Notes under the pieces: model-generated
Database searches by the model: none
Seen by the model: only the letters and a program-made list of their open reading frames with translations
Told to the model about the DNA's origin: nothing
In this document: positions 4,725 through 60,096 of the stretch, in pieces
Numbering within the stretch: the first letter of the stretch is position 1
How the letters are laid out: the number at the start of each line of letters is the position of its first letter
From: Carcharhinus amblyrhynchos
Taxonomy: Eukaryota
DNA length: 64,000 nucleotides
Assembly: GCA_965287045.1 (NCBI GenBank)
Contig: OZ336878.1
Span: 100,254,001 to 100,318,000 of the forward strand
Direction: 5' to 3'
Made by a program: the position numbers and the translations under genes

Positions 4725-7700
4725 ATGGAACCATTTCAAAGGATTCTAAAAATATACTACACAATTCTTGCTATCATTGGTGTACCTGGTAAGTGACTAA
4801 GAACGCTGAAGTTGTGTGAGTTGTTTTCTGTTTTACTCTGTGATTGGTAATGTTATACACTGATCTACTGGTGACTGTTATAATAAACTCGATCAATGAG
4901 ATCATTTGATTCAGTGTGTAGCTGAATCAGACATCAGTATATGCAACTCTGAGAGGAGAGATCTTCCTGGATGGAAATGTTACAGTACAGTTATAATACA
5001 TGTGGGTCACCACCCAGAACAATTTGTTTCTTTTGTTATGTCCAGGTTTGTGCTGATGAGTCTCTCCACCTCACAGATCTGTTTCTGTGTTTCTGAATGT
5101 CACCAGTGACTAAGCCAAATATTTTTTTTTGTTGTTGGCTCAAAGTGTTGTGAATAAATGTATCCAATGAAATACATTGATACTGTTCAGTCTCCACTGG
5201 AACTGCTACAGAAATGTTAAAAACAAATAGTTAAACATGGGAACCACCCAGTTACAGCATTCAAACCCTGTGGACAATAACGTCCTCCCACACACAGCAT
5301 AACTGCTGAAAACACTGTTTTTGTTTCATTGCTGTTTCCCTCAACACAGCTTTGAGAATCTGTGGATGATAGATGTTTTTTATTATTATTGGCATTCACA
5401 GGGGGTGAATTTTGGGCTATGTCAATTAAATTCCCAAATGTTCAATGTTTAACAGACCAGTAATAATCCAGATCGTGAGTTTCAACACACATAGCTTACA
5501 CTGATCTCCACTTTTAGCTCAGTGACGTATATCCCCTCGAGAAAAGACAGTTATGACTGAAGAACATTGATGTTGCATTTCGGAATGTAGAAATCAGTTT
5601 GGAAACAGTAAATGTGAACATTATTGCATTGCTAGTAATGAAATAAATAGTGTACATCTCAATTAAAACGTCACTTCTCCAAAGTTATCAAAGTATTGCT
5701 AAACGTGATTAATTAATTAATTAAAAGGGTAATATCGAACATGTAGCTCAGGTACAAACCATATGGCCTTCGATGTACAACACAGAAACTTTCTCCCATC
5801 ACTCTCCATGTGACTGTTTAGCACAGCTTTCTGTATTCTGTACCACTGTCTGTTTTTACCCCTGAAATTCCCTTTAAGTTAATTCACCCTATTCACATTA
5901 ACGTCTCCAAGTTGTCGTGAAATCCACATTCTGACCATTCTTTGAGAAGATCTGTTGCCCAAGTACAGTTTTGGATTTATTAATGACTATGGTATTTTAA
6001 TGATATTTTATCTCAGACCACCCATCAATTGTAGATGTCTTCTCTGTGGCCACTTTATCAAACACATTCCTCATTTTCCAGCACCTGTCGATCTGAGATC
6101 AGCATTAACTTTTCTAAAGAAAGACCTCGACCTGTTCCTTCTTTCTGGGCAGTTAAAATCTCTCAATTCTGATATTACCCATCTCAAAGATTTTGTACCT
6201 TCTGCTGTGCATTCAGACCCTTGTTGTACTCTGGCAACCAGACTGTGCACAATGTGTTCATTATCAAGAACCAATGTTTTATATAGGTTTACGGTAACCT
6301 TTTTTATTTTCAATTCTTTCCCACTCAAAATGAAACTCGGTGATTTCTTTGATGTTTTATAATGTGTGTGGTGAATTTAGATGATTTGTGCATCTGGAGG
6401 CCTTTCTTCTTTATCTTGACCTTTTATTTTACATCACATATGTAGGAACATGACTTGACCAGTTAAGAGCAAACTCTAGACATTTATTAATGAACAACAA
6501 CTATTTACAGCCTGATGCACATTTATGCTTCCAGACATGACTTTAGGCTCTAACTGCTAGAACAAGCCGAGACAAGTTGGAGTGAAGCCCCAACTCGTTT
6601 CCCGATTGTTCAGCCCTGGTCATGTGACCCTTTCAGAATATTGCCCCTGAAAGGGGTCAGACACCAGCCCTCCCCCTCCCAATTCCTTTATGGACAGCAA
6701 AATAGTTCATTTAGATTGTCCCCATAATTTACAATTACAATTACAATTGGGGCGGCACGTTGGCACAGTGGTGAGCACTGCTGCCTCACAGCTCCAGGGA
6801 CTTGGGTTCGATTCCCGACTTGGGTCACCGTCTCTGTGGAGTTTGCACATTCTCCCCATGTTGGCATGGGTTTCTTCCGGGTGCTCTGGTTTCCTTCCAC
6901 AGTTCAAAGATGTGTAGCATAGGTGGATTGGCCATGTTAAATTGCTCCTTAGTATCAGGGGGACTAGCTGCGGTAAATGCATGGGGTTCTGGGGATGGGG
7001 CCTGGGTGAGATTGTGGCCAGTGCAGACTCGATGGGCCAAATGGCCTCCTTCTGCCCTGTAGGGATTCTATGATTCTATGGAGCTCCTGACTGTTTTGAT
7101 TACATCATTCCTTGTCTCCTTGTTAATAATTACAGTTTCCCAGAATTGCCTATTCTTTTTCCAATCATTATTTGCCAGTTTGATTCTGCCCATTATAAAT
7201 TACTTTCTTTCTCCCTCTCTCTCTGTGCATTGATTTATTTTTACCTGCAGAGTATTTGATTGCAGGAGTAAATACGCCTTTCCACACTTGCATAGCACAT
7301 TGTTGATGCTGAACCAGGATCATTTTGTGCAGTTTCACTTCCTTTACCAAAGGATCAATACATTCTCTGGACAAGGAATTTATTTTTTCATTCATCCATG
7401 GTATGTAGTTGTCTCTGCTTGGGCCAGCATTTATTGCCCATCCCATATTGCCAGTACATGGCATGCTATTTCAGACGGCAGGTAAAAGTCAAGATTCAAC
7501 TTGGCTCTGGGCTCACATGCAGATTCCTGACACGGTATGAGTGAATCTGTGTTATTGTGGGTCAATCCACAACACGTGGACTGTAGTGTTTCAAGAAGAA
7601 AGCTCACCAACACATTTTCAAGGCAAACTTGGGACATGCATTAAATGCTGGTCAGCCATATGCCATCAATGAATTAAAAAAAATCAGATTTCATGGGAAT

Positions 7701-8823
7701 CGACAATGCTTTCATGAATGCCAGGAATGGGATTTTACTGTCCCGTCCGCCATGGGAATTGGGATTGGTGATGAATAGACAGTGGAAAGGCCTGTTGATC
7801 TAGCGTGGGATTTTATGGTTTTAAGACAAGTGAGGCTGGAAAATCCCACCCCAGATATTTGTTGACAAAGAATCTCTGAAACGTAATTTCCATTCTTTGT
7901 TCTCTCTTACAGTTAACTTAGCTGCGATATTAATCCTGTCCCGAGGCAGGTGCGGCCTCTCCGCCTGCACGACTCGTTACCTGGTAGCCATGGCGACAGC
8001 GGATCTACTGTTCATTATCTGTTCAGTCTTACTCTATCGAATAGGTCCTTATTATTTCCCTTTATCATTCCTAGAAATCACTCCTGTGTGTTCTGTTACC
8101 TTTGTCCTGCTTTATGCAACCTCAGAGTGTTCTGTCTGGTTCACCGTCACTTTCTCCTTTGATCGATTTGTGGCCATTTGTTGCCAGAAGCTGAAAACAA
8201 AATATTGCACTGAGAGAACTGCGGCTGTGGTTCTAGCAGCAACCAGCATTCTGCTCTGTTTAAAGAATATTCCCTTCTACTTTAGATTTGAACCTAGAGA
8301 GATAATTGGTAATGTTCCCTGGTTTTGTCAGGAAAAGCCAAGCTATTATATTGATCCAAGATGGGTGGCATTTGACTGGTTTGATAAGATTTTAAGCCCA
8401 TTTCTCCCATATTTTTCAATTCTGTTGCTCAACGCTCTGACAGTCAGATGCATCTTAATGACCAGTCAAGACCGTAAGGGACTTAGGGGTCAGAGCAAGG
8501 GAGAGAATCACAGTGACCCAGAGATGGAAAGCCGAAGGAAGTCTGTGATTTTACTCTTCACCATATCCGGCAGCTTCATACTTCTCTGGCTGTTATATGT
8601 TACATATTTCTTTTATTATACAACTACTGGAATCAATTCTGAATCTTACAGTGATTCTTTATATGTCTTTGCGGAAGTTTCAGTTATGCTGGTAGATTTA
8701 AGTTGTTGCACAAACACATTTATTTATGCAGTAACTCAGAGCAAATTTAGGGAACAGTTAAAGTGTGCAGTGGGACATCCGATTGCAACAGTTATCCAAT
8801 TAATTAATAAAGAAGGCAACTGA
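4725..8823 (+). CDS. Gene A: GPR139/GPR142-like class A GPCR, intact, 324 aa; join(4725..4788,7913..8823)
   Basis: Exon 1 ATGGAACCA...GTACCTG|GTAAGT encodes MEPFQRILKIYYTILAIIGVP. Acceptor TTCTCTCTTACAG|TTAAC; G+TT restores Val in frame with ORF 7897..8823. 64+911=975 nt. Seven hydrophobic segments, AxAD in TM2, ITPVC (C3.25), DRF, PWFC in ECL2, NTFIY in TM7. TM1 resembles GPR139 VYYSLLLCLGLPANI (recalled). Confidence 0.92.
6441..6681 (-). mobile_element. 3' LTR with polypurine tract, in the intron of gene A (also 38332-38571 in C)
   Basis: On minus: GGGAGGGGGAGGG, then TG...CA (6666..6441) containing AATAAA. Confidence 0.6.
6750..7080 (+). mobile_element. HE1-like SINE in the intron of A (duplicate 38641-38968)
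   Basis: Full head, core and GATTCTAT-repeat tail. Confidence 0.9.
7726..7851. mobile_element. MITE-like element just upstream of the exon 2 acceptor (also ~39612-39737; decayed ~59010-59122)
   Basis: Imperfect TIRs GGGATTTTAC ... GAAAATCCC. Confidence 0.45.
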
Positions 8824-9064
8824 GAACAGCCCAGAGGAGGACAAAAGTCTCTACTCCATGAATGTAAAATTGATCCAAATTCCTGCAACTGAAATTGACA
8901 AGATTCTAAAATTACCCCAATAACAATGGACATGAGGGGAAATCATGTGGAGATGCTAGCATTGGACTGGGATAAAGAAGGAACAATTACATTTGCTGTT
9001 TCTTTTCATCTGTGCCTGGAAATTGAGGGATTCTTTAGTTCTTCACGGAAGCAACTGTATCTTT

Positions 9065-9700
9065 TTACTTTCTCTGCGGATTAACCAGCCTCCTAGCTTC
9101 AGGAAAAGAAGCAGCTTTCTCTGCATTTTGGTTTTACATCTCAAAACCTTAACCGTCATTTTTGTAAAGCATTTTCTGTGAAAGTAGAGGTTTCCAGCTT
9201 CTTCAAAACTGCTTCATTACTTCTTCTTGTGAATGCTGGCTTTTCCATGAACTACAATAAACAGAGTCCCTGTGTTAACTGTTTAAGAGATGGTGTATTT
9301 TTCAAAACACATCTGCTTTTGAAATGTTCTTAGACTTTGAAGATTATCTATTTTATTTGAAGAGAGGAGTAAGGTTCGAACCTGACTTTGTCACTGCATT
9401 GACCCGTCAGTAGCCCATGCATAATCTGGCTGAACCATTTGCAAAAGCTTTAACGTGACTGGGGGACACCACCTCCTTTGGTTGGATTCAATGAGGTAAT
9501 TTTCCAACATGTACTGGAGGTCTGCTTTCACCAGTCTGTTCCTCTGGATTCAAAGGGCCTAGTCTGCAGGGAATGGTTGGAAGGCGGAGTTGTGCGTAAC
9601 TTGCAGCAGAAAACTGGAAGTCGGCCATGGGGAATTCTTGAAAGGTTTGTCGTTTGCTTTTATAGTGCAGGTCGCAGTGGACGGTGGTTCAGTGTTTTAT
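9065..9700 (-). mobile_element. Ty3/Gypsy relic containing the RT N-terminus (paralogue 43120-43760; partial 62100-62335)
   Basis: ORF 43397..43708 reads KAELQYMVENHLIESSQRSWSSPVMLNLKADGSIRSLMGYRRVNAVTK, the typical Gypsy RT start. Confidence 0.8.
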
Positions 9701-9729
9701 TTCTACCTGTATATAATTTGGACAGTTCC

Positions 9730-10010
9730 TAAACACGAGACACTACACTTGCAGTGTCCCCCACCCTTCCACCTCCTCTAACCTAAAGGGGATGAGAGAA
9801 TATCAGGGGAGCTCTTTCTTTCTTTTTCTTGGTTTATCTGAAAGTTATCTAGAGGGGGTATAGGGAAGGCAGTGCAATGTTCCTCCGGCAGAATGTTGGA
9901 GCTGAGGGACGCTGTCAGTGTCCCTGCTGATTTCACCTGTGGGAAGTGCACCCATCTCCAGCTCCTCAAAATCCACGTTAGGGAACTGGAGCTGGAGCTG
10001 GATGAACTTC
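9730..10010 (+). mobile_element. CR1-type LINE 5' end / ORF1 N-terminus (paralogue 43785-44125)
   Basis: AVQCSS..MLELRDAVSVPADFTCGKCTHLQLL...RELELELDEL, a Cys-finger plus leucine-zipper pattern. Confidence 0.7.
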
Positions 10011-10695: not shown

Positions 10696-11219
10696 TCGTC
10701 CGATGGTTTACATTATGGCCCTAGTTATTTTTTTTTGAGTGTATCAGTCCTGAGTATGTGGGTGGTATGCTGAGGACCCCAACTGCTTCATACCCAAACT
10801 AATAACTCCCTGAGAAATGTCAGATGTGATGTTGGAACATTGATCCGACTGGACCTCAATGGATAATACATATCGAGTGAAGAATTTAATCAACTAGTGC
10901 CAAAAATCTCAGTGCCATTTCCAACAATGCAACTTGCGTTGCTTTACCCTCTCAAATTTGATATAAGCTTTGCCCGTGCTATTTTCAAAGGCTGCAAATT
11001 AGCCGTGGTTTACACAAATTGCCTTTTTTTGCCATCACAAAGTCCCTCGATTCAGAAAACAAGACATAGATCGAGCTCTGCCGTTAATCTGCTTTGCCTG
11101 AGTAATATCCAGTTTACATCTTCCTAGCCCATCTGCTAATAGCCATCTTTCAAAAAAAAAGCAAAATACCTCTGCATCACTTTCCTCAAAATTAGGGAGG
11201 GTGTGCATCAATGTAGAGT

Positions 11220-11560
11220 GACATGGTGGCACAGTGGTTAGCACTGCTGCCTCACAGCTCGAGGGACCTGGGCTCGATTCCCGGCTTGGGTCACTGTCTG
11301 TGTGGCATTTGCACATTCTCTCTATCTCTGTGTGGGCTTCCTCTGTGAGCTCGAACTTCATCCCAGAGTCCAAAGATGTGCAGGTTATATGCATTGGCCA
11401 TTCTAAAGTGTTCCATCTTGTCCCAGGGTGCATAGGTTCGAGGGAATAATGGGATAAATTTGTGGGGTTGCAGGGATAGACTCGAGGGGGGATTGTTATC
11501 AGTACAGTCCTGTTGGGCCGAATGGCCTCCTTCTGCACTGTAGGGATTCTATGATTCCAT
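11220..11560 (+). mobile_element. HE1-like SINE
   Basis: Complete head, core and tail ending GGGATTCTATGATT. Confidence 0.88.
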
Positions 11561-11789
11561 GTTACAGTTCCCCACACATTCTCGAGTTAAAATCAGGACT
11601 CTCTCCCCATCAAAATTTTGATGAGAGTCAAAATCAGCCTCTTGTTTTGTCTCCAGCAGCCGAAGTGAGTGATCGCTTACTGCTTTACTCAAATTGCTGA
11701 ATTCTGAACATGTTGAGAATTACCAAAGTTTTTTCCCATTTGTGTTCAACCAACTCTCTCATATGGTTGCAGTGGGCTCCAAAGTGGGC

Positions 11790-13946: not shown

Positions 13947-14247
13947 GTCATAGAAACTCTACAGTACAGAAAGAGGCCATTCGGCCCATCACGTCAGCAC
14001 CAACCACAATCCCACCCACTAACCCCTCTAACCTAAGCATCTCAGAACACTAAGGGCAATTTTTAGCGCGGCCAGTCAACCTAAGCCACATATCTTTGGA
14101 CTGTGGGAGGAAATCGGACCACCTGGAGGAAACCCACACAGACACGAGGAGAATGTGCAAACTCCACACAGACAGTGACCCAAGCCAGGAATTGAACCCA
14201 GGTCCCTGGAGCTCTGAAGCAGCAGTGCTAACGACTGTGCTGCCGTG
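13947..14247 (-). mobile_element. HE1-like SINE inserted in a LINE relic
   Basis: Reverse-complement head, core and tail; absent from the paralogous segment near 31600. Confidence 0.88.
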
Positions 14248-14639
14248 ACGCTCTTGGATTGGATATGGGAGCGATTTCACCGTCCCTATGGTTACTACAT
14301 TAGCATCCTGATACTCCCTGCCTAACAGCTAGCTGAATTGCAGTAGCGTTTAAAAATGGTTCAACACCACCTTTCCCTGAGCAACAAGAATCGGCTGTCA
14401 CAATGTGAGGTGAGTTGTGTTTGAGGTTCTGTATTAATCCGAGGGGCAGTATTGCTTGAAGTTGTTGAATCATTTTAAAAATACGTTGAATCAATTCCCC
14501 CTGGTGACTTATTTCACAATTTGCAACATATGAAGAGGGCAGGACATCCAAGGCCACATTGCTGTCACCCAGAGAGGACTACTGAGCTTCAGAAGTAATT
14601 TCCTGGCTGAACAGTAGAATTAAGTGAGCTGAAGTGAAG

Positions 14640-15289: not shown

Positions 15290-16020
15290 CATCAAGTTAC
15301 ATGACTGGCGGTTTAAACAAAGGAGGTGTTTGCAGGTCGTGCATGAGGTTCCAGTAGGAGGTCATTTAGCAGTTAAAGTTACTCAGGGAAGTTATGGAAT
15401 GCTTGGAAGTCAAGGAGTTTAAACCAACTCTGAGCAGCCAAAAGCACAGGGAGTATTGGAATGGGATCATCAAACTTCAAAGACAATGTTGAGATACTTT
15501 AGTCAGGATTACACCATCGATGGAAAAGGAAATACGGAGATTACTGGGTGGGAATGGCTTTTACCGTAAATTCGTGTTAATCTTAGCCCTGTTTTGGTTC
15601 CATTGACAGACCTGCTGGAAAATCACAGAAAATGTCAGAGCACAGCTGTGTGTCAGCAGACATCTGACAGTCTGAAAGATGTGTTAACCACTGCACCCGT
15701 ATTGTCGACACCGAGTTAGACAAAAACATTCCATGTGGCCATTGATGCAAGCGATTTGGGTGTTGCTGCGGTTTAAAAGAAGATGAAAGAACAGAAATAT
15801 ATTTTGAGTATTTTCTCAGAAAGCTCAATATACATCATTGAGAAAGATGCATTGAGGGCAACTTCCCCTCCCACCAACCACGGGAATCGTAGCGGGTGGG
15901 TGGTGCGGGGATGGGGAGTGGGAGGTACATCGAGAGGCCTGGCTTTGGGATTGGCCAGTCTGTTCTAAACTGGGTAATATGGTTTCAGTTAAAACTGTTC
16001 AGTTGAGAGTTAATGTTCAA
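15290..16020 (+). mobile_element. Internally deleted Ty3/Gypsy pol relic, order IN-RT-RNaseH (RNase H part duplicated at 21750-22145)
   Basis: HEVPVGGHL (IN zinc finger), EWDHQTSKTMLR (IN core), GFYRKFV and PLTDLL (RT thumb), LTTAPVL and VAIDASDLGVAAV (RNase H). Confidence 0.75.
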
Positions 16021-18583
16021 TAAAACAATTAAAGTGTTGCAACTGTTGTAAGTTTAAGTTTGGGAACTAAAATATTGATTTAATGGAAATTTGCTTAAGA
16101 AAATCTGAGGTGACTCCATCCTTGGCTTGTCTCATTAAACTAAATGTTGGGAAAGAGGTTAAATTAATGGTTGAATTACAACTGTATAAAATATATATAT
16201 ATTTTATTACAGCTAAGCAGACAAATTTAATAGCAATATGCTCAAACTCACTTATTTTCCAACATTAGGGGGCGAGCGAGGGGCAGAAAATCCCTCCCAT
16301 AAGCTCGGTATTGTCATTGCAACTTTTCAACATTTATGTTGCCAGCGATTGATCAGAACCGGCGACTCAAATGTTGAGAATATAGAATAATGACAAATTT
16401 TAACTGATGGTGTGTTCTGTCTAAACAGAGTTAATGCATTTTTGTTTAGTTAGGTTTCATTTGGATTTTCAGAGTTGGGTTTTGATTAGATTTAGTGACA
16501 GCCATGTAATTAATAAGAAGAGCTATGCTTGCAGGAAAGCCAGTGCTGTAAATTATTTTAACAAAAAGGGGATTTTAATCCTGATGCGCATAATTTTAAG
16601 TTGTACTGACTCTCAGATCCTCTCTCTTCCCTAACTTCAGAGCTATTTCTGTTGGCAAAATAGAGTCATGGTTACCACACCAGGCAGTTATAAATTTTGT
16701 GATTTCTTCTGATGTAGGGCAGAAGAAACTGTTTGTAAAACGCGCTTTCCGACAGACAGAGATTGCTGGGAGTTCACAAAACTTTTCCTTCTGTGGGCTG
16801 AGTTCTCCCAACAGCTAAATTGTGGAGGTCCTGATACACCTTTTCCCATTCAGAACATCCTTTATCAGAACTAACCTCCGCAGAAGTCATGCCAAATTAT
16901 ACTCATGAGTTCGCAATTTAGTAAACAGTTATGAAGTTCATGCCTCATCTCCTTCATTCATCCTTGAACATGTTTACTCGCATCTTTGCATTGTATTTTC
17001 CATTGTTATTAAGTTCTCTGCGAAACTTGTGTTTATAGTGTTGTTCGACAATCATCATGTCAAAAGCACTGGTTTCTTCGATACAGTTATCTCTACAACT
17101 TTGTAGTTTCCATATCGAAAATATTACAGACTGACAGTCAGTGGAACACACTTGGAACTATCAAATTGGCTTGATTTTCATATCATCACGATTTCCTGGC
17201 ATTAATTGATTTGCCTATTAGTTATCCTGCTGAATCACTCAATTCAAAAAATTACAATGAAACGTTCCTTCTTTGAAGTTCATGAGTCAATCAGTAAAGT
17301 TAATCTAAAGTGCACATGGAGAGATATTTTGGACATTAGTTGTTTATTAAAGAGGACACACAGAAATGCAATGTTCCATTCTGGAAACAACTATACTGTT
17401 GATCGAAAGAACATCACCTAGTTCCATACTTCACCATCTGGCTTCAAAATGAATTAAGGCTCCTTTTCCCCACAGCCACGACTACTAGTGGGGGGTGGGG
17501 GTGGGACGTTTTAATTCAAAATGATTCTGGTACGATTCAATTGATTGAAGTATTGAGGAGATTCCCTCTTTTGCTTTCTTTACTCATGAGTTGAATAATT
17601 GATGTAAACGGACATTTAATTAAACTCTTGAACTGCTCCCTGAACTTGGATTGAGTCACCCCATAGATAAGTGTGTTTGTGCAGCAGTTTAATTCCACCA
17701 GCATAGATCCGACTTCCTTACAAATATATGAAGAATCATTAAAATCATCTGGATTAATACCTCTAATTGTATAATACAAGAAGTTTAATACATATAAAAG
17801 CCACAGAAGTATAAAGCTGCCAGATATGGCGAAAAGTAAAATCATAGACTTCCTTCTGCTCTCCATCTCTGGGTCACTGTGATTCTTCCCCTTATTCTGA
17901 CTCTTCAGTCCTTTACGGACTCGACTGCTCACTAAAATGTACCTCACTGTCATAGCATTGAACAACAGAATTAAAATATATGGGAGAAATGGGGTTGAAA
18001 TCGTATCAAACCAGTCAAATGCCACCCAAGCAGGATCAGTATAATAGCTTGGATTACTATCACAGAACCAAGGAACATCGTCAATTATCACACCAGGTTG
18101 AAATGTAAAGTAAAAGGGAAGGCATTTTAAACAGTTCAGGATGCAGGTTATTGTTAGAACCACGGTTGCATTTTTCTCAGTGCAATATTTTATTTTCAGT
18201 TTCTGACAACAAATGGCTATAAAGCGATCAAAGGAGAACATGACAGTAAACCAGGTCGAGCAGTTTGCAGCTGCAAAAAGTAGGACAACAATAACACTAC
18301 ACACAGGGGTGATGTCCAGAAAAGATCCTGGGAAATAACAAGAACTGATCCGATACAGTACCACCTGAATGAAATTGAATATTAGATCCGACAATGCCAC
18401 GGCAACCAATTAACGGGTGGTGCAGGTGGAGAGGCCACACATTCTCCGGGACAGGGCCACGGTTGTCAGTAAATTGACTGCAGGCGAGATAAAGAGAAAA
18501 AGATTAGATACATTCAACTAAACTTCATTGTGCCTGAATTCGTTCAGTGAGTGCATGATTTCACAACTCAGAAATCGATTATT

Positions 18584-18645
18584 TGTGTGTGTGTGTGTGA
18601 GTGTGTGTGTTTGTGTGTGCATCTGTGTGTGTGGATGTGTGTTTA
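18584..18645. repeat. (GT)n microsatellite in the B1 intron (also 25324-25372 in B2)
   Basis: Interrupted TG run. Confidence 0.9.
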
Positions 18646-19869
18646 CGTGGTGCTCCGGGGGTAATGTTTAAGAAATTTCAATCCCATCTTCAATCTGCCG
18701 ATTGCCAGATGGAATGAGATTGCGTTGGAGAGAAGGGACAAACAGCTACTCCCTCTAGAAGAGCTGGAATTTTCATTATTTAATGATAATCGAAATCTCT
18801 GATTTAATGAGGTTCACATTTGTTTCTCTGGCCAGATGCATTTTGCCCTGTTGGATTCCACATTGATAATCCCAGCCTGAGCAATCCCTGGACACTTGGA
18901 TTTGGACTCCATCAACTCTGGGGTGACATGCTGTTCAGATACTTTAGGATTGCCCCCTCCCAACCATCCACCCGCCCACCTCCCCAGCCTCCATTGCAAT
19001 TGGGCACTTCATCTGATCCTCACTGTGAATGGATGTCTTCATGCCCTGGGGAATTATTGGATCATGCAAGGTCTGAAAATTTCAATATTAAATGCTGATA
19101 GGAGCCCCATGACTGAACCACCTCTGGGGTTGGAATGGATTTGGAGTGCCACTGTGAGGTCTAATAGTTTTTTGACCCACTATTCGGGCAGGGTGAAAGG
19201 TTGGTCGCAATCCTTGAATCTGGAAAGTAAACTAATGTGGTCAGAGAAGACGGGCGAGGAAAAATGAAATTCATGAGCTTCTCTAATTCCACAGTAAACA
19301 TTCGTGTTTACACTAAAAATTGCAGGAAAATCATAATAATAATTAAATATTAATGAGGGAGGACATATTTGATAAAGTGACAAGGATAAGGTAAAACCGC
19401 AGTCAGAGGCACAAATATCTGTTCATAATCATCATCAGAATAGGGAATAGCGACAGTTCTGTCCTGCTCTGACCCTCTCAGTAAACAGTTACCGTGCGTT
19501 TCTGTTGATGTCGATGACAACACAACAGAGCAATACCAATATATAGAGTCATCCGGCAGTACAGAACTAAAGTGTTATTGAAAAAGGTGAGGTGAGGAAG
19601 CTTCTTGTCTTACAGACATCAGGGCATGGTCCTGATGTGGATATTGATGCAAAGTGTCTGAGGAGTGCAAAACACTCCACTTGTCTCTTTCTTCAGCAAT
19701 GCCAATATATTCTATTTATCAAGTACCCGGAACGATCACCCAATGGCAAAGATTTCCTCTGTTACCATTGATTACATTTGTACAATCACAGGGACGGCTC
19801 GATGGTTTCGAGAGATCATTCACCTGAAACAGCAGGTCCAAGGGAGAAACCACTTGGTTCCACTCAGAT

Positions 19870-20215
19870 AGGTAACACACTCAGCACAATTCCATACTGA
19901 CAAATACTCCCAGTAACACACAGACACTCAGATCAGGAGTTCCTCTCCAGTTAGTGACCCAAACTGTTCAGTTCTCTAGTTACACATTTCCCTGTAATAC
20001 ATTGTCACCAGGGTTAGTATTCCATTCCAGTTGAGACCCACAATCTGAAGCAGATACTCCCAGTAACACATGGCTGAGATCAGGTGTTACACGCTAGTTT
20101 GTGACCCATATGGAGTAAAATTATGCAGTGACAGATACGACCAGTACTACATAATCACTGGGATCATATGTTCCACTCAAGTTGGTGACCCATCCAATAC
20201 ATGCAATTCTTCAGT
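19870..20215. repeat. Degenerate ~70-80 bp tandem repeat in the B introns (also 26590-26900)
   Basis: Recurring ACARATACTCCCAGTAACACA...GATCAGG...GTGACCCA units, 4-5 copies. Confidence 0.6.
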
Positions 20216-20678
20216 GAAAGAGACACCAAAAGTACAGGAATGTTTTAGGTCAAGTGGTCCATTCTGTTTCAGATCCTCGGTACAATATTACAGTGACAGT
20301 TATTCCCAGCGTTTGTTTCATTTTGCTCGTTCACGGTGTTAAAATCTATCGTGTTCTACACAGTGTTCCACTATGAGCAATTACTCTTTGTCTTCCTTTC
20401 AGTTGAGGTAAAATAATAAAACCAGAGTGGTAATTCGGGAGATTTGACTTAAAGTATCATCGATTTCGTGCCTGTAAATTGGTGGCCACCAAATCTGCTT
20501 AAAACCAGAGATGAGCTCATAGTGATAGATAAACACAACTTCAAAGATCATACTCGCTTACCAGGGACACCGATGACAGAAAGAATCATGTAGTATATTT
20601 TCCTGATCGTCTCAAATGTTTCCATACTTTACTGTGAAGTGATCTATCTTTTGAGTGATATGTGCTGGGAGCCTTTCA

Positions 20679-45460: not shown

Positions 45461-46269
45461 TGTCAGCCGAAGTCTGGCTGTTATCCAGGTCTTGCTACAT
45501 TTAGACAGTAAAAGCTTCAGAACCTGCAGCGTCCTGGATGATGCTGAACATTGTGCAGTCATCAGTAAACATGTTTAGTTAATGGAACGAACGTGACTGA
45601 TGGAGCAACTGAATATGGTTGGGCCTAAAACTTCACTCTGAATAACTCCTGCAGAGACGGCCTGGAACTGAGGTGGTTGACATCTGACCATCAGAAACAG
45701 CTTGCTTTGTGCAAGGTTTAACTCCTACCATGTGAATCCCATTCATTGTCTGTGATTAAGATTCAATTAATGGAATGTTTGGAAGGAAGTGGTGGCAGAG
45801 GGCAGGAGATGACAAAACAGACATTGAGATCCTAGGCTCAGATAAGGAGGATGTCGACTCTCAAAGACTGTAAACGTGAAGTATCAAATCTGATAATGTT
45901 TAAAATGATTTTATAAAATTGGCAGGTTTGAAACAATGAATTTAACATGATTCAGAACAAGCTTATGGCCTGAAACTAGGGAGGATAAAGAAGTAAGAGA
46001 CAATGTAGAAATAAAAATATGCACACAAAAGTGAAAAAAGGCGCAATTCTTGATGACCGGGATGATGCAAAGCACTCTAAATGGTGACAAAGCAGACAGT
46101 AACAGTATTTCAAAGAATCTCTTCAGTGCCGGAGGAGGTTATTTTGCCCATCGAGTCTGCAATGACTCTCTCTCTGACAGATAATGTACTCTGTGATAGT
46201 GCAGTGGTTAGGATTCGGCATTTTCTCAGCCTCAGGTTCAATTCCCAGTGAGGCAAGGTGTTTGTAATG

Positions 46270-46850
46270 GGCAGCACGGTGGTACAATGTTTAGAACTGC
46301 TTCATCACAGTGCCGGAGACCAGGGTTCAATTCCTGGCTTGGTTCACGATCTGTGTGGCATTTGCACATTCTCCCTGTCTCTGCATGGGTTTCCTCTGGG
46401 TATTTGGGCTTCCTCCCACAGCCCACAGACATGCAGCTTAGGTCGATCGGCCATGCTAAATTGTCCCTTACTGACAGGGGACAGCTACTGTAAATGCTTG
46501 CGGTTGCAGGGATAGGTCCTGGGTGGGATTGTGATCAATGTAGACTCGATGGGCCGAATGACCTCCTTCTGTATTGTAGGATTCTAGTACCTTCCCCAAG
46601 TTCTTTCCTCTCCCTAACCCTGTATCCCCACACATTTACCATGGCTAACCTATTGAACCTACACATCATTGAACACTAAGGGACAATTTAGCATGGCCAA
46701 TGCAAGTAAACTGCACATCTTTAAACTGTGGGAGTAATGTGGGGCGCTCAGAGGAAACCCATGCAGATACGGGGAGAATGTGTAAACTCCAGCTAGTGAC
46801 CCAAATCTGAAGTCAATTCCAGGTTCCTGGTGCTGTATAAAGGCAGTCAC
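46270..46850. mobile_element. Two adjacent HE1-like SINEs in opposite orientation (46270-46585 +, 46610-46850 -)
   Basis: Both contain the HE1 core. Confidence 0.8.
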
Positions 46851-49114: not shown

Positions 49115-49430
49115 TAAAATCCCCACAATGCGGAAGGAGACCATTCGTCCCATCAAGCCTGTACTGGCAATAATCCCACAAAGGACCTATACCCATAATC
49201 CCACATACTTACCCTGCCAATCCTCCTGACACTAAGAGTCATTTCACCACGGCCAATCAAACTCATCCACACATCATTGGTGTATGGGAGGAAACCAGAG
49301 CACCCAGAGGAAACACACGCAGACGGGGAGGGGGGAGAATGTGAAAACACCACACAGTTATGCAAGGCCAAAATTGAGCCCCAATCCCTGATACTATGTG
49401 GCAGCAGTGCTAACAACTGTGCCACTGTGT
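49115..49430 (-). mobile_element. HE1-like SINE
   Basis: Reverse-complement head GGCAGCAGTGCTAACAACTGTGCCAC plus core. Confidence 0.8.
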
Positions 49431-49909: not shown

Positions 49910-50225
49910 GCTCTGACAGTCAGGGACAGATGGAAAGCAGAAGGAAGTCTATGATATTGCTCTTCAGCATTTCTGGCAGCTTTCCACTTTGTGGTTATTG
50001 TGTGTTATACATTTCCTATAGTATATTATCACAGGAATCAACCATGTGTGTTCCAGTAATCTTACATATTTCTTTGCAGATGTTGGAGTTATGCTTCTGA
50101 ATTTATATTGTTGTCCAAATGCGTTTATTTATGGGGTGATTCATCACAAGATAAGGGAGCAGTTCAAGAGTGTGTTGAAATATCCATTTACATCCATTAT
50201 TCAATGACTTAATCAACAAAACTAC
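49910..50225 (+). pseudogene. Gene D: decayed 3' fragment (TM5 end to C-terminus) of a sixth paralogue
   Basis: GCTCTGACAGTCAG (ALTVR), then ATGGAAAGCAGAAGGAAGTCTATGATATTGCTCTTCAGCATTTCTGGCAGCTTT (MESRRKSMILLFSISGSF), then CCPNAFIYGV-like and REQFKSVLKYPFTSIIQ-like segments, with an internal deletion, frameshift and stops. Confidence 0.85.
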
Positions 50226-51969
50226 AGTCAGCAGACCAGAGGCGAGTACTAGAGCTTGCATTTCATGATTGGAACATTTATCCTGAGTTTTCAATCAACT
50301 GAATGATATCAGGAATCACTGAGGATATAAAAATACCTGCAGTCGTGGCGTGGTATTGGTGATGGTGGAGAGGAAGAGATCGGCATTTGGACATGGACGG
50401 GGGGGAGGACGACCATTACAAGGTCCCCTACAGGACATGATGGGGAACAGAAGCCATAGGGCTAGATATTCGAGCCCTTGACACTGGTGAGATCTTCCAG
50501 TCCCGGCAATGTAAATAGGCAGTTAAAGGAATTGCCGTGACTTAATTTTCTCCACCTCCACTCAGCTACTCATACCTGCTCAGATAGAAACAATATTTGC
50601 TTAAAAGACTGGCTGCTGCGAATGCCAACCATTTTATTATATATATTACCCTGAGTATTAGGTTTTTGAAGATATTTGATTTAACCTGTATCCACGCCCC
50701 TTCCACCCCCCATCCCTCCACCCCGCCCATCCCACACTCTATCTTTTATCTCTAATTCTCTCCTTCTTTTCCCATCATTACATTGGGGATGGAAGGGTGG
50801 GTTTCTGTCTGCCTATGGCCCTGCTGAGTGGACCAAACATGGAGAGGAGAGCTTGGGTGAGCTACTGGGATTGGCGTCATAGCATCTGCCAATTATGGCA
50901 TCACAACCTAGTGGCTGATTACTGGGCAGGAACTAATCCCTTCCTTGCTTCAATGTCAGCTGATACCTGTTATTGTAGATAAGTTAATCACTTCGTGGTT
51001 CATCCCTGCTTCCTTGAAATCCCTCGATCTGCATCATAGCTGCTGCAGGGACTAGAGTTCCGAGGGAGACTAGGCCTGAATCAGCACTGCGCTGGATTTT
51101 AAACACTGAACAGTTGCTGCGCTCCACTCTCCGGACGCTTCTCCCATATGGAACAGAATCTTCAGAGCTGTGGATCGATATTCCCTATTTATGGCATCAT
51201 CTACTGTAAATCTGTAACTCCCACCCTCTTTGACAAATAAGAATTTGATTATGTAAGATAAGCAAGTGGAATGAGTTGGTTGACTGGGGGGACTGGGTTG
51301 TTGGAGGCTAGCCTTACAACTTAGGAGGTTGTGTGTTCAGGGGCGTGAGGAGGCAGAGGGTGCAGGGAGGTGGGATATCCTGGAAGTCAGATGGTCAGGG
51401 TGTCATGCAGAGGGAGAGGTGGGATTGTAGGTGGGAATAGGAATCGGATTGTCACAGGTTGGGAGGTGGGGTAATCGGATCACCGTTGCTATGAAGAATT
51501 GGAAGTGGTAGTGATTTGTCTAACATTTCCTGGCTGACTATTCTGCTAATAAAATCTGAACCACATGAAGACTCCAATTCAAAATGGAGACTGGGATGGT
51601 TCCAGGCTAATGGTTGAACGAGAGTTTGAAGTACTGGGCATTTCATGTGCAGCTCTCTGGTGTTGATCCAGAAGGAACTCTTCCCATTTGGACAATAAAA
51701 ATATAATGATACTGACTCCAATTTATAAATCAAAGAAAAGGTTTAATGAGGAAATATCATTACTCCAATACCTAAGGCCCCACCCTAAGCCATTCCAAGC
51801 CATCTGACAACTCCCAACAGGTTCTTATTCATATTGAGTCCACTGGTCAGCTGATCATCACATCATTCTGTCCTTGACTACATGGTTTATTGGTTTGTAG
51901 AAGGTGTCAGCTGGCCCTTACGGCTTGTTATGATGGGTCACAGAACAGCAGATATAGTACCAGTTACAT

Positions 51970-55610: not shown

Positions 55611-55969
55611 CCACCCCGCTCCGCCTCCCACACCCCCGCCACTCCCCACATCCCAAACACGGATCTCACAGCAATTCCTGAGCCAGCCTTGGCCATCCCT
55701 TCCTGGAGCGTGACGATGCACAGCCTACACCCCCAGCACTGGCAACCCCCCCACCTCCCTCATCACAGTACCCGCCCCACCCCGGGCTGATCGCCTCACA
55801 GAATGGCATAGAACATTACAGCGCAGTACAGGCCCTCCGGCCCTCGATGTTTCGCCGACCAGTGGAACCAATCTAATGATCCTCTAACCTAAACTATTCC
55901 AGTAGGTAGAACCCCTCTCCCCCTCCGCACTGCGGAGGCAGGCCCCACCATCGGCAAACAATGTAAGAA

Positions 55970-56301
55970 TTGAGGGGATGTAGCAGTTGAGAGAATACCT
56001 TAGTTTGAGGGCATGTTTCAGTTTGTGGGACTGTATCTGCTGGTGGGGCCGCTACAGTTGTGGGATTGGAATAGCTTGAGAGAATATATTAGGTTGAGGG
56101 AATATATTCATTTGAGGGACTGTATTAGTTTGAGGGATTATAACAGTTGACGGATTGTACCAGTTTGAGAGAATGTATTGTTGGATGGATGGTACCAGTT
56201 TGGGGACTTTATTAGTTTAAGGGACAGCACCAGTTAGGATTTGTACCAATTTGAGAGAATATGTTTCATCTTGAGGGGCTGAATCAGTTTGAGGGACTGT
56301 T
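55970..56301 (+). repeat. 18-bp array upstream of E
   Basis: Alignable to the proximal two-thirds of the gene A array. Confidence 0.85.
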
Positions 56302-56630
56302 TTCTTTTCAGAGAAAGTCGTCACCTGTATTTTTGAACAGACAGGTGAAATAAGGCGGCCACATCTCAGAGTGCAGCCACACAGTCCTGAGAAGACACCT
56401 CATATGTGAAATGGTAATTGCTAAATAGACACGGCAGAGAAAATGGTCATTGTAATATTGTGAGATCTGGGGAAGGACATGATGCTATGAGAATTATCAA
56501 CACCATTGCTCGGAGAATAGAACTTCCAATTATTACTTGGTGAATTAGTGTGATTAAAACTGATCAGTCTTTAGTTTATCCCAATGTGATCTCAGATCTA
56601 AACATGGTCTTTCACAACAGGCAGTGAACT

Positions 56631-56727
56631 CAGCTGTTGCAAAATGCTGACTTGTTTTTTTTCAGAAACACATTTGAAAGATGTTGTAACTTCAATGTCC
56701 CCATGGAGATGTCACAGTGTATAAAAA
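56631..56727 (+). promoter_or_regulatory. Putative core promoter of gene E
   Basis: CAGCTG 56631-56636, TCCCCATGGA 56698-56707, TATAAAA 56720-56726. Confidence 0.65.
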
Positions 56728-56806
56728 CAGCAAATATATCACACATGTATTGAATTCAAAGAGATCGTTTGTATCACCAAGGTCAGATCACAACGTACAG
56801 AAAAAA

Positions 56807-59800
56807 ATGGAATCATTTCAAAGGATTCAAAAAATATACTACACTATTCTTGCTATCGTTGGTGTACCTGGTAAGTGACTGTGAACACTGAAGTTGTGTA
56901 AGTCTGTGTGAGTTGGTTTCTGTTTTACTCTGTTATTGATAATTCACTTATCTACTGGTGAATGTTATACAGAAACCTGATCAATGAGATCATTTGGTTA
57001 AGGGTACAGCTGAATCGGATATCAGTACAGGCAATTCTGAGAGGAAAGATCTTCCTGGATGTTTATCTTACGATACAATTGTACTGGATGTGGGTCACCA
57101 CCCAGAAAAAATTGTTTTTTTCTATGTGCAAGTTTGCGCTGATGAATCTGTCCACCTCATGGATCTGTTTATGTGTTTCTGAATGTCACTGGTGACCAAG
57201 CAGAATATTTTTGTTGTTCTGTTGGCTCAAAATGTTTGTGAATAAATGCACCCAATGAAATATATTGATACTGTTCAGTCTCTATTAGAACTGCTACAAA
57301 AGACAGAAATGTTAACTGCAAACAGTTAAACATTGGGACCACACAGTTACTGCATTCAAAGCCTGTAGATGACGGCTTACTCTCGCACACAGTATAGTTA
57401 CTGAAAACACATTATTTGTTTTATTGTTGATTAATCTCCTTCTCTCAACACAGCCTTTTGAATCTGTGGGTCATGGATTTTTTTTTTATGAATGGCAATC
57501 ACAGTGGGTGAATTTAGGCCAATGGTCAATGAATTTCCCAATTGTTTAACGTTTAACAGACCAGTAACAATCCAGATCATGAGTTTCGACGCACATAACT
57601 TAAATCGATCCTGCATTTAGCTCAGTGAACTGTATCACATCAAGAGAGAATAGTTATGACTGAAGAATATTGATTAATTAATTAATAGGGTCACATCAAA
57701 TATGTAGCTTCGGGATAAACAATCTGTTTTTTGCTGTACTATACATAAACCTTCCCTCATCGCTCTCCAGATAACCTGATCAGCACAGCTTTCTACTATT
57801 CTGTACTGCCTGTCTTGTTTCCTGAATTTCCCTTGAACTTGATCCATACTCTTCACATTAGCAGCTCCAAGTTGTCACGAAATCCACATTCTGACCATTC
57901 TTTCAGTAGATATGTTCCCCTTGAATACATTTTTGGCTTTATTAATGACTATAGTATTTTAATGATATTTTATCTCAGACCACCCATCAATTGTAGACGT
58001 GGTCTCCATGGCCACTTTATCGAACACATTCCTCATTTTCCAGCACCTGTCTAACTGCGGTCAGCATTAACTTTTCAAAGGAAAGACCTCAACCTGTTCC
58101 TTCTTTCTGGATAATTAAAATCTCTCAGTTCTGATATTATTCATCTCAAAGATTTTGAACCTTCTGCTGGGTATTCAGATCCTTGTTGTACTCTGGCGTA
58201 CAGACTGTGCACCATGCGTTCATTATGGAGAACCAATGTTCTATATAAGTTTACTATAACCTCTTTTATTTTCAATTCTTTTCCACTCAAAATGGAACTC
58301 GCTGATTTGTTTGACTTTTTTTAATGCATGCTTTAATTTAAATAATTTGTGGATCTGGAACTCCTTACTGCTTTGGTTGCATCACTCATTGTCTCCCTGT
58401 TTATAATTACAATTTCCTAAAGTTGCTGATTTTTGTTTTCCATTCACTATTTACCAGTTTGATTCTACCTATTAGAAATTACTCTCTTTCTCTCTCTCTC
58501 TGTGCATTGATATATTTTTACTTCTTGAATATTTGAGTGCAGGAGTACATCTGTCTTTCCACATTTGGATGGCACATTGTTAATACTGAACCTGTATTAT
58601 TTTGAATAGTTTCTCTCCTTTTACCTAAGGATAGGTACATTCGCTATCAAAGGAGTTTGTTTTTTCATCCATGGGGTGTAGTTATCTCTGCTTGGTCCAG
58701 CACTTATTACCCATCCCATATTGCCGGTACACAACATCTTATTTCTGAGGGCAGGTAGAAGTCAAAATTCAACAGTGGCGCTGGAGTCACATACAGATTC
58801 CATTCCCTAAAGGGTATGAGTGAATCTATGGCATTGTGGGTTCAACCCACAGGTGTGGACAGCAGCGTTTCAAGAAGGCAGCTCACCACCACCTTTTAAA
58901 GGCAAACTAGCGACGGGGATTAAATGTTGGCCAGCTATATCCCATCAATGAATAAAATGAAAAAGAACTGGGTTTCATGGGAATGAACAATGGTTTCATG
59001 AATGCCAGAAATGGAATTTTACTGCCCTGTCCACCATAAGAATCGGAGCTGGTGAGGAGTGGAAAGCAGATAGTTGTATTGACATAGGGTGGGATTTTAT
59101 GTTTTTGGGACAAGTCCCACCCCAGAACTTTGTTGACATACAGAATCTCTGAAACATAATTTCCATTCTTTGTCCTCTCTTACAGTTAATTTACCTGCGA
59201 TACTAATCCTGTCCCGAGGCAAGTGCGGCCTCTCCGCTTGCAGCTCTCGTTACCTGGTGGCCATGGCGACAGCAGATCTACTGTTCTTTATCTGTTCAGT
59301 CTTTCTCTATCGAATAGGTCCTTATTACTTCCCTTTATCTTTCCTGGAAATCACTCCTGTGTGTTCTGTTACCTTTGTACTGCTTTGTGCAACTGCAGAG
59401 TGTTCTGTCTGGTTCACCGTCACTTTCTCCTTTGATCGATTTGTGGCCATTTGTTGCCAGAAGCTGAAAACAAAATATTGCACTGAAAGAACTGCGGCTG
59501 TGGTTCTAGCAGCAACCGGCATTCTGCTCTGTTTAAAGAATGTTCCCTTCTACTTTAGGTTTGAACCGGGACAGATAATCAATAATATTCCCTGGTTTTG
59601 TCAGGAAAAGCCAAGCTATTATACTGATCCAAGATGGGTGGCATTTGACTGGTTTGATAAGATTTTAAACCCATTTCTCCCATATTTTTCAATTCTGTCG
59701 CTCAACAGTCTGACTGTCAGATATATTTTAGTGGCCAGTCGAGCCCGTAAGAGACTGAGGAGGCAGAGAAAGGGAGAGAATCACAGTGACCCAGAGATGA

Positions 59801-60096
59801 AAAGTCGAAGGAAGTCTGTGATGTTACTCTTCACCATATCCGGCAGCTTCATACTCCTCTGGCTGTTATATGTTACATATTTCTTTTATTACACAACTAC
59901 AGGAATCAATTCTGAATCTTACAGTGAGTCTTTATATGTTTTTGCAGAAGTTTCAGTTATGCTGGTGAACTTAAGCTGTTGTACAAACACATTTATTTAC
60001 GCAGTGACTCAGAGCAATTTCAGGGAACAGTTAAAGCATGCAGTGGAATGTCCTATTGCAAAAATTATCAAGTTAATTAATAAGGACAGCAACTGA
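56807..60096 (+). CDS. Gene E: GPR139/GPR142-like class A GPCR, intact, 324 aa; join(56807..56870,59186..60096)
   Basis: Exon 1 MESFQRIQKIYYTILAIVGVP|GTAAGT; acceptor CCTCTCTTACAG|TTAAT, in frame with ORF 59170..60096. Same motifs as gene A. Confidence 0.92.

Follow-up and report, generated by a model that had tools for sequence, protein, structure and literature searches.

Six copies of one class A GPCR gene, each intact copy made of two exons, lay in the 64,000-nucleotide stretch of Carcharhinus amblyrhynchos DNA analysed here (the window). They belong to a large family that, judged from its sequences, is likely an undescribed array of chemical detectors in animals credited with only a handful. 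Our literature search found no description of this family, and the databases automatically name its genes 'probable GPR139'.

Receptor genes of the window

Comparison of the window with itself by tblastn, together with exon mapping, showed three intact copies, two broken ones and one fragment, confirming the at least six paralogues in 55 kb (three intact genes, two pseudogenes and a fragment) of the preliminary description. Genes A (exon 1 at 4725-4788, exon 2 at 7913-8823) and F (56807-56870 and 59186-60096), both on the forward strand, were intact and encoded 324 aa each, and gene C, on the reverse strand (27327-27264 and 25218-24278), was intact with 335 aa. Gene B (reverse strand, 20625-20562 and 18477-17537) was a pseudogene with an in-frame TAA at codon 44, as was gene D (forward strand, 36646-36709 and 39798 to about 40556), which had a 2-base deletion near 40318 and had lost its 3' end, its similarity to A stopping abruptly in TM7. 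Copy E (forward strand, about 49912-50283) was a frameshifted fragment containing TM6-TM7 and the 3' flank, for which exon mapping within the window found no exon 1.

Each of the five copies having exon 1 had 64 coding bases in that exon, followed by a phase-1 intron with a GT donor and an AG acceptor that falls directly ahead of N1.50, an identical splice layout that agrees with the compact two-exon genes described earlier; in gene A the first exon (4725-4788, forward strand) comprised 21 codons plus one base and encoded the first half of TM1. Pfam 7tm_1 was matched by 4/4 window receptor frames scanned (E 1e-18 to 1e-20), and an Rfam search of the window gave no matches. The two subfamilies originally proposed were real, since protein identity was 87% between A and F and 66% between A and C, and B and C were 91% identical in the tblastn self-comparison. 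A small correction concerns fragment E, which stands apart: its DNA identity to either subfamily was about 70-73% in the self-comparison, and it looks like a third lineage.

Two duplications were evident in the window. The segment at 31900-40556 (forward strand) duplicated positions 1-8673 with 92.5% identity and carried gene D as the copy of gene A, and a tandem duplication of about 6.7 kb (15638-28459, 92-93% identity) gave rise to B and C. An 18-bp minisatellite array was found about 0.7-1.1 kb upstream of gene A (3595-4045, forward strand), with similar arrays ahead of the other exon-1-bearing copies (21263-21474, 27980-28188, 35446-35965 and 55960-56336), so that 5/5 of these copies had one, in constant orientation relative to the gene. 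The array was missing from the C41 cluster; it was local to the C9 subfamilies and was rejected as a family-wide switch.

Size and turnover of the family

A TM3 motif pattern gave 1,312 exact matches in the genome and none in the control. In a census of 864 kb we found 38 copies, 28 of them with an intact exon 2 and 10 broken. The TM3 pattern recovered 27/38 of the census copies, corresponding to about 1,850 copies genome-wide, and a second pattern (876 matches) recovered 11/38, corresponding to about 3,000. The family thus comprises more than 1,300 copies and, after correction for motif misses, about 1,800-3,000, likely about 2,000. Mark-recapture with the two patterns, applied to contigs C1-C12, put the number at about 2,700-2,800 on the assumption that they are independent, and the census-based range is preferred; tight DNA patterns, with 34 and 128 matches, were undercounts of the family. 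These figures dispose of the possibility, raised in the preliminary description, that the family is limited to a handful of copies.

New copies of the family come from segmental duplications that span entire gene units, and copies are lost through stops, frameshifts and truncation. Tandem expansion with birth-and-death turnover was supported, and the family has hundreds of clustered genes with such turnover, as chemosensory repertoires do.

Descent and relation to GPR139 and GPR142

The phase-1 intron acceptor directly before N1.50 was found in the window genes, in 58/60 fetched copies, and in the genome's own GPR139, L123 and L124. L-Trp and L-Phe activate the class A orphans GPR139 and GPR142 (PDB 7VUG), which resemble the family in their two coding exons, in this intron and in N5.58 and W6.48. 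Unlike them, the family has mostly lost the polar anchors R6.51, E3.32 and N7.39 as well as P6.50, has a TM3-ECL2 disulfide that is absent from shark GPR139/142, and numbers more than 1,300 copies as against a single gene each. In this genome the two genes lie on other contigs and share 19-22% identity with the family, whereas orthologues of GPR139 or GPR142 would be single conserved genes with about 70% identity or more across vertebrates (PMC7318219). An AU test rejected a clade of the family with GPR139 and GPR142 (p=5.3e-5). On these three grounds (identity, separate true genes, AU test) we rejected the family as GPR139 or GPR142 proper.

The sister of the family, with support of 100/99, was an unnamed amphibian and sturgeon receptor (Pleurodeles XP_069092602, Xenopus tropicalis P0297, Acipenser P0313; 'probable GPR139' in RefSeq). 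It formed one cluster per species in 20 amphibian species, was also present in the sterlet, and is conserved and apparently single-copy, with 66-74% identity across salamanders, frogs and a caecilian. It shares the ICL3 DPE motif and the very short N-terminus with the family and differs from it in keeping P6.50 and a basic 6.51. Since no separate orthologue nearer to the sister gene was found in this genome, the whole family is likely co-orthologous to the amphibian and sturgeon gene; because that gene is conserved and apparently single-copy, the expansion is lineage-specific, like those of known chemoreceptor families.

The next branch out consisted of coelacanth and teleost receptors of the general GPR139/142/210 group, which also have a short N-terminus. 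A third GPR139/142 subtype, GPR210A/GPR210B, has been named for coelacanth, gar and teleosts, the available part of that report making no mention of sharks (PMC6504862); the A or B assignment of the receptors compared here stays at the level of the general group. The family is separate from L123, the genome's single orthologue of the coelacanth gene (64% identity). Besides GPR139 and GPR142, two further single genes of the group stay one-to-one in this genome. The key branches of a quick 53-row tree were confirmed by a careful 24-row tree; rooting was at the midpoint, without other vertebrate GPCR families, and the monophyly of the superfamily is outside its scope.

Trees and Foldseek placed both the nearest named relatives and the nearest solved structure in the GPR139/GPR142/GPR210 superfamily. 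The top Foldseek row for the predicted model was GPR139 (E 2.4e-10, 21% identity), barely ahead of neurotensin receptor 1, and VIA re-alignment (Z 26.4 for GPR139, 28.0 for the best) singled out no receptor. Of the earlier designation as GPR139/142-like receptors, kinship at the level of the group stands, given the intron position and the top Foldseek row, but the genes are not paralogues in the narrow sense, a shared clade being rejected. Further out, FMRFamide/myosuppressin receptors are the protostome sister of GPR139/142, according to the part available of PMC8557429.

N1.50 was residue 23 in the window genes, and helix 1 began at residue 2 in the predicted model of a 78%-identical relative (pLDDT 86.7), so that the N-terminus is indeed short and its earlier length of about 8 residues before TM1 was, if anything, an overestimate. 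N1.50 lies at residue 23-26 in single-copy amphioxus, coelacanth and salamander relatives. On this comparison the very short N-terminus is ancestral and not a sensory adaptation, and, being common to those single-copy relatives, it offers no evidence of a sensory role, contrary to what had been proposed.

Receptor motifs, ligand pocket and selection

All 40 aligned proteins (members and relatives) matched 7tm_1. In a set of 73 paralogues, obtained by thinning 95 intact exon 2 sequences at 97% identity, D2.50, R3.50, N5.58 and Y7.53 were kept in 73/73, and the class A motifs tested (D2.50, D/ER3.50, W6.48, N7.49-x-x-x-Y7.53 and the TM3-ECL2 disulfide) were present in 70-73 of the 73, as expected of class A receptors; P6.50 and P7.50 were mostly absent. 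No olfactory or vomeronasal Pfam family was found among the 40 proteins scanned, and the TAS2R profile gave a weak match in 2/40 (best E 2.9e-6). The absence of olfactory and vomeronasal profile matches and the coding intron ruled out membership of the OR, TAAR, V1R or T2R families.

GPR139 binds Trp and Phe through F3x33, H5x43, W6x48, N7x38, R6x51 and E3x32 (PMC7318219). W6.48 was kept in 70/73 copies and position 3.33 was aromatic in 38/73 (F in 15, Y in 23). R6.51 and E3.32, however, were each present in 3/73, N7.39 was outside the eight commonest letters among the 73 copies, and the His position (alignment position 179) was H in 4/121 proteins. The polar anchors of GPR139 being mostly lost, we rejected Trp/Phe sensing, a form of the amino-acid reception that the preliminary description had suggested.

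Omega among the 73 paralogues was 0.73 at 29 pocket positions versus 0.28 at the 109 remaining TM positions and the 75 intracellular ones, and entropy was 2.43 bits in the pocket versus 1.14 bits (p=2e-9); the pocket was defined with Ballesteros-Weinstein numbering once the variability profile was in view. Of the M8 sites with a posterior above 0.5, 18/20 were pocket or extracellular. In 15 young paralogues (median identity 85%), pN was 0.132 in the pocket versus 0.014 in the inner loops, and inner-loop omega in the 73 paralogues and the young cluster was 0.18-0.28. A variable pocket and outer loops with a conserved transducer face were thus found, as in chemosensory repertoires, and a hypervariable pocket with a conserved G-protein face is what receptors that read many ligands into a single output should show.

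M8 was favoured over M8a with 2dlnL of 34 (omega 1.4) and 79 (omega 4), branch lengths being fixed up to scale; the C41 analysis omitted one broken copy of 16. In the young cluster the tree-based omega was about 4 at 13% of sites, synonymous divergence was 0.18 near the pocket versus 0.074 elsewhere, and the distance matrices of gene thirds correlated only at 0.19-0.31, indicating mosaic evolution. The tree-based omega above 1 was discounted because of this gene conversion check (mosaicism and raised local pS). When synonymous rate variation was allowed, only 2 sites exceeded 0.9, and pocket pN/pS was 0.66-0.81 with local pS (0.66 in the young cluster) and 1.1-1.3 when gene-wide pS served as the reference, the intervals including 1.

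Promoters

A proximal promoter block with a C/EBP-like site, a TCCC-N4-GAGA element (O/E-like or kB-like) and a TATA box was located upstream of gene A (4599-4646, forward strand), with corresponding blocks at 20677-20724 (B), 27392-27439 (C, TATA box altered), 36520-36567 (D) and 56681-56728 (F). The factor names are presumptive and come from consensus motifs picked after the sequences had been viewed. Of 45 promoters displayed, 33 had a clear TATA box and were thinned to 28. An O/E-like site, a motif picked post hoc, stood 10-32 bases before the TATA box in 8/28 promoters versus about 0.5% of background windows; other post hoc motifs were C/EBP-like (13/28) and kB-like (4/28), and forkhead motifs fitted too. 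A stretch resembling kB/CK-1, again a presumptive name, adjoined the C/EBP-like site. A homeodomain motif in 9/28 promoters showed no clear excess over background (18-27%), and the block was absent from 16/16 C41 promoters. Odorant receptor promoters are marked by O/E motifs, according to the part available of PMC12547500.

Possible roles of the family

There is about an even chance that the family is a receptor repertoire that detects external chemicals, probably peptides or cues resembling them, in sensory cells of the nose, taste organs, skin or gut. Each copy would bind its own set of ligands and all copies would feed one shared G-protein pathway. The ligands would be peptide-like, because two features of peptide receptors, a TM3-ECL2 disulfide and a beta-hairpin, are kept, the lineage descends from the W/Y/F-amide receptor branch, and the polar Trp/Phe anchors of GPR139 are lost. 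We counted in favour of a detector repertoire the family size, the fraction of intact exon 2, the diversification of the pocket, the conserved activation motifs, the apparently single-copy sister and the O/E-like promoter sites. A parallel is offered by the nematode srw chemoreceptors, proposed detectors of environmental peptides that arose from relatives of FMRFamide/myosuppressin receptors, a birth-and-death radiation from the same branch (PMC2576165, part available), and Srw-bearing clusters were among the nearest by language-model features; the origin is nevertheless independent, with Pfam Srw matched by 0/40 members and relatives, and the analogy is functional only. OR, TAAR, V1R/ORA, V2R/OlfC and T2R genes likewise show large clusters, pseudogenes, a variable pocket and a conserved inner face; they differ in ancestry, and the family has a coding intron in TM1.

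Against this role, almost all olfactory neurons of the catshark are of the microvillous TRPC2/Go type and V2R expression is robust, so the nose already has a receptor family; the same source, in its available part, counts only 34 V2R genes and 4-9 each of OR, TAAR and V1R (PMC10116579). No GPCR of any kind was among the top 50 genes by abundance and specificity in a brain-plus-olfactory library of the catshark, as given in the part available of PMC11979771, a result uninformative for weakly expressed families. The post hoc multi-factor promoter fit, the block missing in C41, the insecure positive selection and the ancestral short N-terminus also count against it.

A role in innate immunity or irritant sensing, on granulocytes, mast-like cells or nociceptors, is somewhat unlikely. 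The receptors would then detect microbial, parasite or venom peptides, like mammalian formyl-peptide receptors or MRGPRs, which are clustered, short-N-terminus sensors of peptides and irritants. The mosaic pattern, in which divergence is highest near the pocket codons, resembles arms-race loci, and the high tree-based omega of the young cluster and the C/EBP-like sites adjoining the kB/CK-1-like stretch would fit such a role, but the promoter matches are post hoc, and the one to two thousand genes contrast with the tens that make up known immune GPCR families. Cartilaginous fishes reportedly lack MAS1 and the receptors related to it, according to the available part of PMC8455134, leaving an MRGPR-type role vacant there.

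It is improbable that the family serves reproduction or internal signalling (in sperm, oviduct, gut endocrine cells or brain) as many tuned copies with a neuropeptide- or nutrient-receptor role like that of GPR139/142. The retained W6.48 and aromatic 3.33 point that way, and the forkhead-like and C/EBP-like motifs would presumably fit expression in gut or liver; over a thousand receptors with hypervariable pockets, however, are not needed for internal ligands that form a fixed set, and GPR139, GPR142 and the two further genes of the group are single in this genome. The lineage does descend from neuropeptide receptors (PMC8557429, in part), and a snail expansion of FMRFamide-like receptors was tied by its authors to reproduction (PMC11589774, in part), but true peptide receptors stay one-to-one across species, according to the part available of PMC2576165.

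That unstable, repeat-rich chromosome regions and uncollapsed haplotypes account for most of the copy number, few copies mattering, is more improbable still: duplication does proceed in 7-40 kb blocks carrying minisatellites and transposons, many matches are on small contigs, some of them scoring identically, and may be allelic or assembly duplicates, and 10/38 census copies are broken, but exon 2 is open in 28/38, pairwise dN/dS between window copies (0.29-0.50) and inner-loop omega are low, members occur in at least nine shark genera, in rays and in a chimaera, and the 73 paralogues are far apart, with a median identity of 59%.

Returning to the detection of outside chemicals, a bolder form of it is tentative: vertebrates may have in this family a seventh kind of chemoreceptor, and cartilaginous fishes their principal one, with one to two thousand peptide-tuned receptors that arose from the GPR139/FMRFamide-receptor branch in parallel to srw, each the only one made by its sparse olfactory or taste neurons. 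If true, the idea that a few dozen receptors serve the sense of smell in sharks would fall. Whatever tissue expresses it, this is probably the largest receptor family of cartilaginous fishes, on a par in size with mammalian OR repertoires, its one to two thousand intact receptors concealed by the automatic label 'probable GPR139'. The sister gene, single and conserved, makes Xenopus a laboratory system in which the ancestral ligand may be sought.

Results

Self-comparison and exon mapping revealed six copies of one GPCR gene (A-F) in the window, located at G000:C9:100,254,001-100,318,000 of a genome of 2.92 Gb. Copies A, C and F were intact, B had a stop at codon 44, D carried a frameshift and was shortened in TM7, and E was a TM6-TM7 fragment. 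The inventory of the preliminary description (three intact, two pseudogenes, one fragment) was thus reproduced, except that E by its sequence looks like a third lineage beside the two subfamilies. In all five exon-1-bearing copies the coding exon 1 was 64 bases long with canonical splice sites, and their introns measured 2.0-3.1 kb. Self-comparison also indicated two duplications: one of at least 8.7 kb (92.5% identity) gave rise to A and D, and a tandem one of ~6.7 kb to B and C; pairwise dN/dS between window copies was 0.29-0.50.

Along G000:C9:100138000-100404000, the cluster was built of a unit recurring every 32-40 kb, in which an A-type gene on the plus strand was accompanied by one or two C-type genes on the minus strand; ~265 kb within this interval held 21 copies, and the flanking stretches held none. 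The window also contained a dispersed repeat of ~320 bp, probably a SINE, with copies 67-78% alike (80-391, 6749-7070, 11218-11561, 13947-14251, 31980-32293, 38640-38960, 46266-46586 and 49115-49429), two copies of a decayed retroelement-like piece with 89% identity (43115-44066 and 9059-10010), whose frame 43397-43714 gave no match in a Pfam scan, and an inverted repeat of 374 bp with 97% identity (30902-31275 / 31669-32042) at the left-hand boundary of the large duplication. A probable satellite, a long tandem repeat whose open coding frames ran to 927 and 1,504 codons, lay at about G000:C9:100444000-100453000 (L173-L174).

The family was real and much larger than the preliminary description saw. 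Comparison of gene A exon 2 with the genome gave 3,526 first-look candidates, and the 130 scored all had E <=1.2e-122. A degenerate pattern of the TM3 motif had 1,312 exact matches genome-wide and none in the control, so the proposed tandem expansion was not limited to the handful in the window; the ICL3 pattern had 876 matches, and the exon-1 donor pattern 643 as against 17 in the control. As a correction for misses, 864 kb were examined irrespective of gene content (464 kb surrounding the window, plus 200 kb from each of two other family-bearing contigs). They held 38 copies, 28 with an intact exon 2, 9 broken and 1 fragment, corroborating the pseudogenisation that had been claimed. The TM3 and ICL3 patterns caught 27 and 11 of these 38, giving scaled totals of ~1,850 and ~3,000 copies. 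Because the three census regions were not chosen at random and the copy count may be inflated by uncollapsed haplotypes on small contigs, ~2,000 copies, roughly three quarters intact, is only an estimate, and 1,312 is the hard count.

Of 3,892 candidates in the protein database, 2,157 clusters matched at E 0.001; the nearest 120 of the 2,157 all came from sharks (nine genera), and 117 of these were named 'probable' or 'putative GPR139'. Members were also found in the skates and rays Leucoraja, Hypanus, Rhinoraja and Mobula and in the chimaera Callorhinchus.

The likeness to GPR139 and GPR142 proposed in the preliminary description held in part. A phase-1 intron before N1.50 was common to the family, GPR139 and two further single relatives in this genome, L123 (64% identical to a coelacanth receptor) and L124, and the top Foldseek row, obtained with a confident model of a relative 78% identical, was human GPR139 (7VUG). 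Orthology with GPR139 or GPR142 was ruled out, since GPR139 (C18) and GPR142 (C21) were each present in this genome as a separate single gene and were the only two matches of the GPR139 motif pattern, the family was only 19-22% identical to them, and a clade of family, GPR139 and GPR142 was rejected (AU p 5.3e-5) with midpoint-rooted trees in which each of the two was one shark sequence. A quick 53-row and a careful 24-row tree placed the chondrichthyan copies in one clade (92/94) with a salamander gene as sister (100/99). Among 25 matches at E 1e-20, each of 20 amphibian species had a single cluster of this gene (66-74%), as did sterlet (46%), and no amniote or teleost match was among those listed. 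These proteins (P0236, P0294-P0313) represent a conserved receptor auto-labelled GPR139. The Xenopus protein gave a flat list in the shark genome, all <=35%, with 118 of the 3,051 candidates scored.

L124 (G000:C7:106816749-106817645, minus strand; likely exon 1 at L113, C7:106836015) belonged to the GPR139 superfamily as a single-copy gene on a long branch; it kept E3.32, P6.50 and R6.51 and had a near-identical catshark counterpart (XM_038798774.1). L124 possibly represents a fourth, unnamed subtype in vertebrates; the third, GPR210A/B, has been named for coelacanth and fishes, and the accessible part of PMC6504862 does not mention sharks.

N1.50 was residue 23, leaving almost no extracellular N-terminus. 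The minimal N-terminus described previously was therefore present, but it is inherited rather than a sensory adaptation, because N1.50 is at residue 23-26 in the amphioxus, salamander and coelacanth relatives. The paralogue set (95 sequences of this genome thinned at 97% to 73; median identity 59%) kept D2.50, D3.49-R3.50, N5.58 and Y7.53 in 73/73 and W6.48 in 70/73. Residues of GPR139 that bind Trp/Phe include R6.51 and E3.32 (PMC7318219, in part). The binding residues were largely lost in the family, these two each remaining in 3/73 copies, which leaves the suggested amino-acid (Trp/Phe) receptor system unsupported. Loss of R6.51 marks the radiation, as this residue was kept in GPR139, GPR142, L123, L124 and the sequences from coelacanth, teleosts and amphioxus. 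The TM3-ECL2 cysteines were kept in 72/73 and 71/73 copies, and the model of the 78%-identical relative had a predicted ECL2 beta-hairpin; the two features occur together in peptide receptors. Shark GPR139 and GPR142 (L121, L122) lacked these cysteines, which all other group members examined kept.

Across 121 shark proteins, variability showed peaks at one-turn spacing in TM2, TM3, TM6 and TM7 and a further peak immediately behind the ECL2 cysteine. In the 73 paralogues omega was 0.73 at 29 pocket positions, listed by class A numbering once this variability profile was known, as against 0.28 at the remaining TM and the intracellular positions. M8 exceeded M8a by 34 units (omega 1.4 at 7% of sites; our own codon likelihood matched the IQ-TREE value), and 18 of the top 20 sites were pocket or extracellular, only 2 sites remaining above 0.9 once synonymous rates may vary. 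Among 15 young copies from a single cluster, M8 omega was about 4; since these genes are mosaics with raised synonymous divergence near pocket codons (0.18 versus 0.074 elsewhere) and local pN/pS was 0.66 in the pocket (0.17 in inner loops), omega above 1 does not establish strict positive selection. Differences concentrated in ligand-facing segments, and the transducer face was conserved or homogenised. The young cluster, at G000:C41:2000001-2200000 (L201-L220), where 15 of the 16 copies within 200 kb were intact, had near-identical promoters and exon 1 but TM2-TM3 and ECL3 segments in a patchwork, which points to gene conversion sparing or shuffling ligand-facing segments.

Most copies had a TATA box about 70-110 bases 5' of the ATG. 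Before it, among 28 non-redundant promoters, a TCCC-N4-GAGA-type element (13/28, or 8/28 by a stricter O/E consensus with one mismatch), a C/EBP-like site (13/28) and a forkhead-like site (8/28) were each far above background; a homeodomain motif was near background. As the motifs were picked after viewing the sequences, and the promoters are related by descent, these frequencies show conserved blocks and not the identity of a binding factor. The C41 subfamily had the TATA box in 16/16 and the TCCC-GAGA element in 0/16, and an 18-bp array 5' of each window gene was confined to local subfamilies.

Discussion

A variety of pockets over one shared inner face is how a detector repertoire is built. 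We give about even chances to the family detecting outside chemicals, probably peptides, in sensory cells of nose, taste, skin or gut, a sensory function that we infer from sequence. Of the promoter motifs, C/EBP beside kB would instead suggest myeloid genes. O/E motifs are typical of odorant receptor promoters (PMC12547500, in part). The protostome receptors that bind aromatic-amide peptides form the sister group of GPR139/142 (PMC8557429, in part), and the same receptor branch gave rise to the nematode srw chemoreceptors, proposed sensors of environmental peptides (excerpts of PMC2576165), a likeness to the shark family. One point against the nose is that in catshark almost every olfactory neuron is a microvillous TRPC2/Go cell and V2R expression is robust (PMC10116579, in part).

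An immune or irritant-sensing repertoire is rather unlikely; the mosaic genes would suit an arms race, and MAS1 relatives are reported absent from sharks (PMC8455134, in part). Reproductive or internal signalling appears improbable, and we give little credence to mostly neutral amplification.

The family genes are present in RefSeq under automatic names, and are misnamed as GPR139 on the sequence evidence. The family is apparently undescribed: full-text searches, which covered few subscription journals and not all supplements, found no paper on it among the matches listed, and term searches found no mention in the accessible parts of the catshark sensory genome paper (PMC11979771) and the whale shark paper (PMC8455134), or in those on zebra shark (PMC10620051) and Greenland shark (preprint 10.1101/2025.02.19.638963) and a GPR139 review (PMC12208981). 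Part of PMC11589774 and the supplements of PMC8569936, PMC10529500 and PMC13188829 were also covered. Newly added here are a copy census, a sister gene in amphibians and an analysis of the pocket, and both orthology with GPR139/142 and Trp/Phe sensing are rejected.

Given one cluster per amphibian species and the flat list in the shark genome, a conserved ancestral gene probably remained single-copy in those bony vertebrates that retained it, and underwent an explosive expansion in cartilaginous fishes. The family would then be an independent radiation of detector-type GPCRs, with the amphibian/sterlet gene as its tractable single-copy sister.
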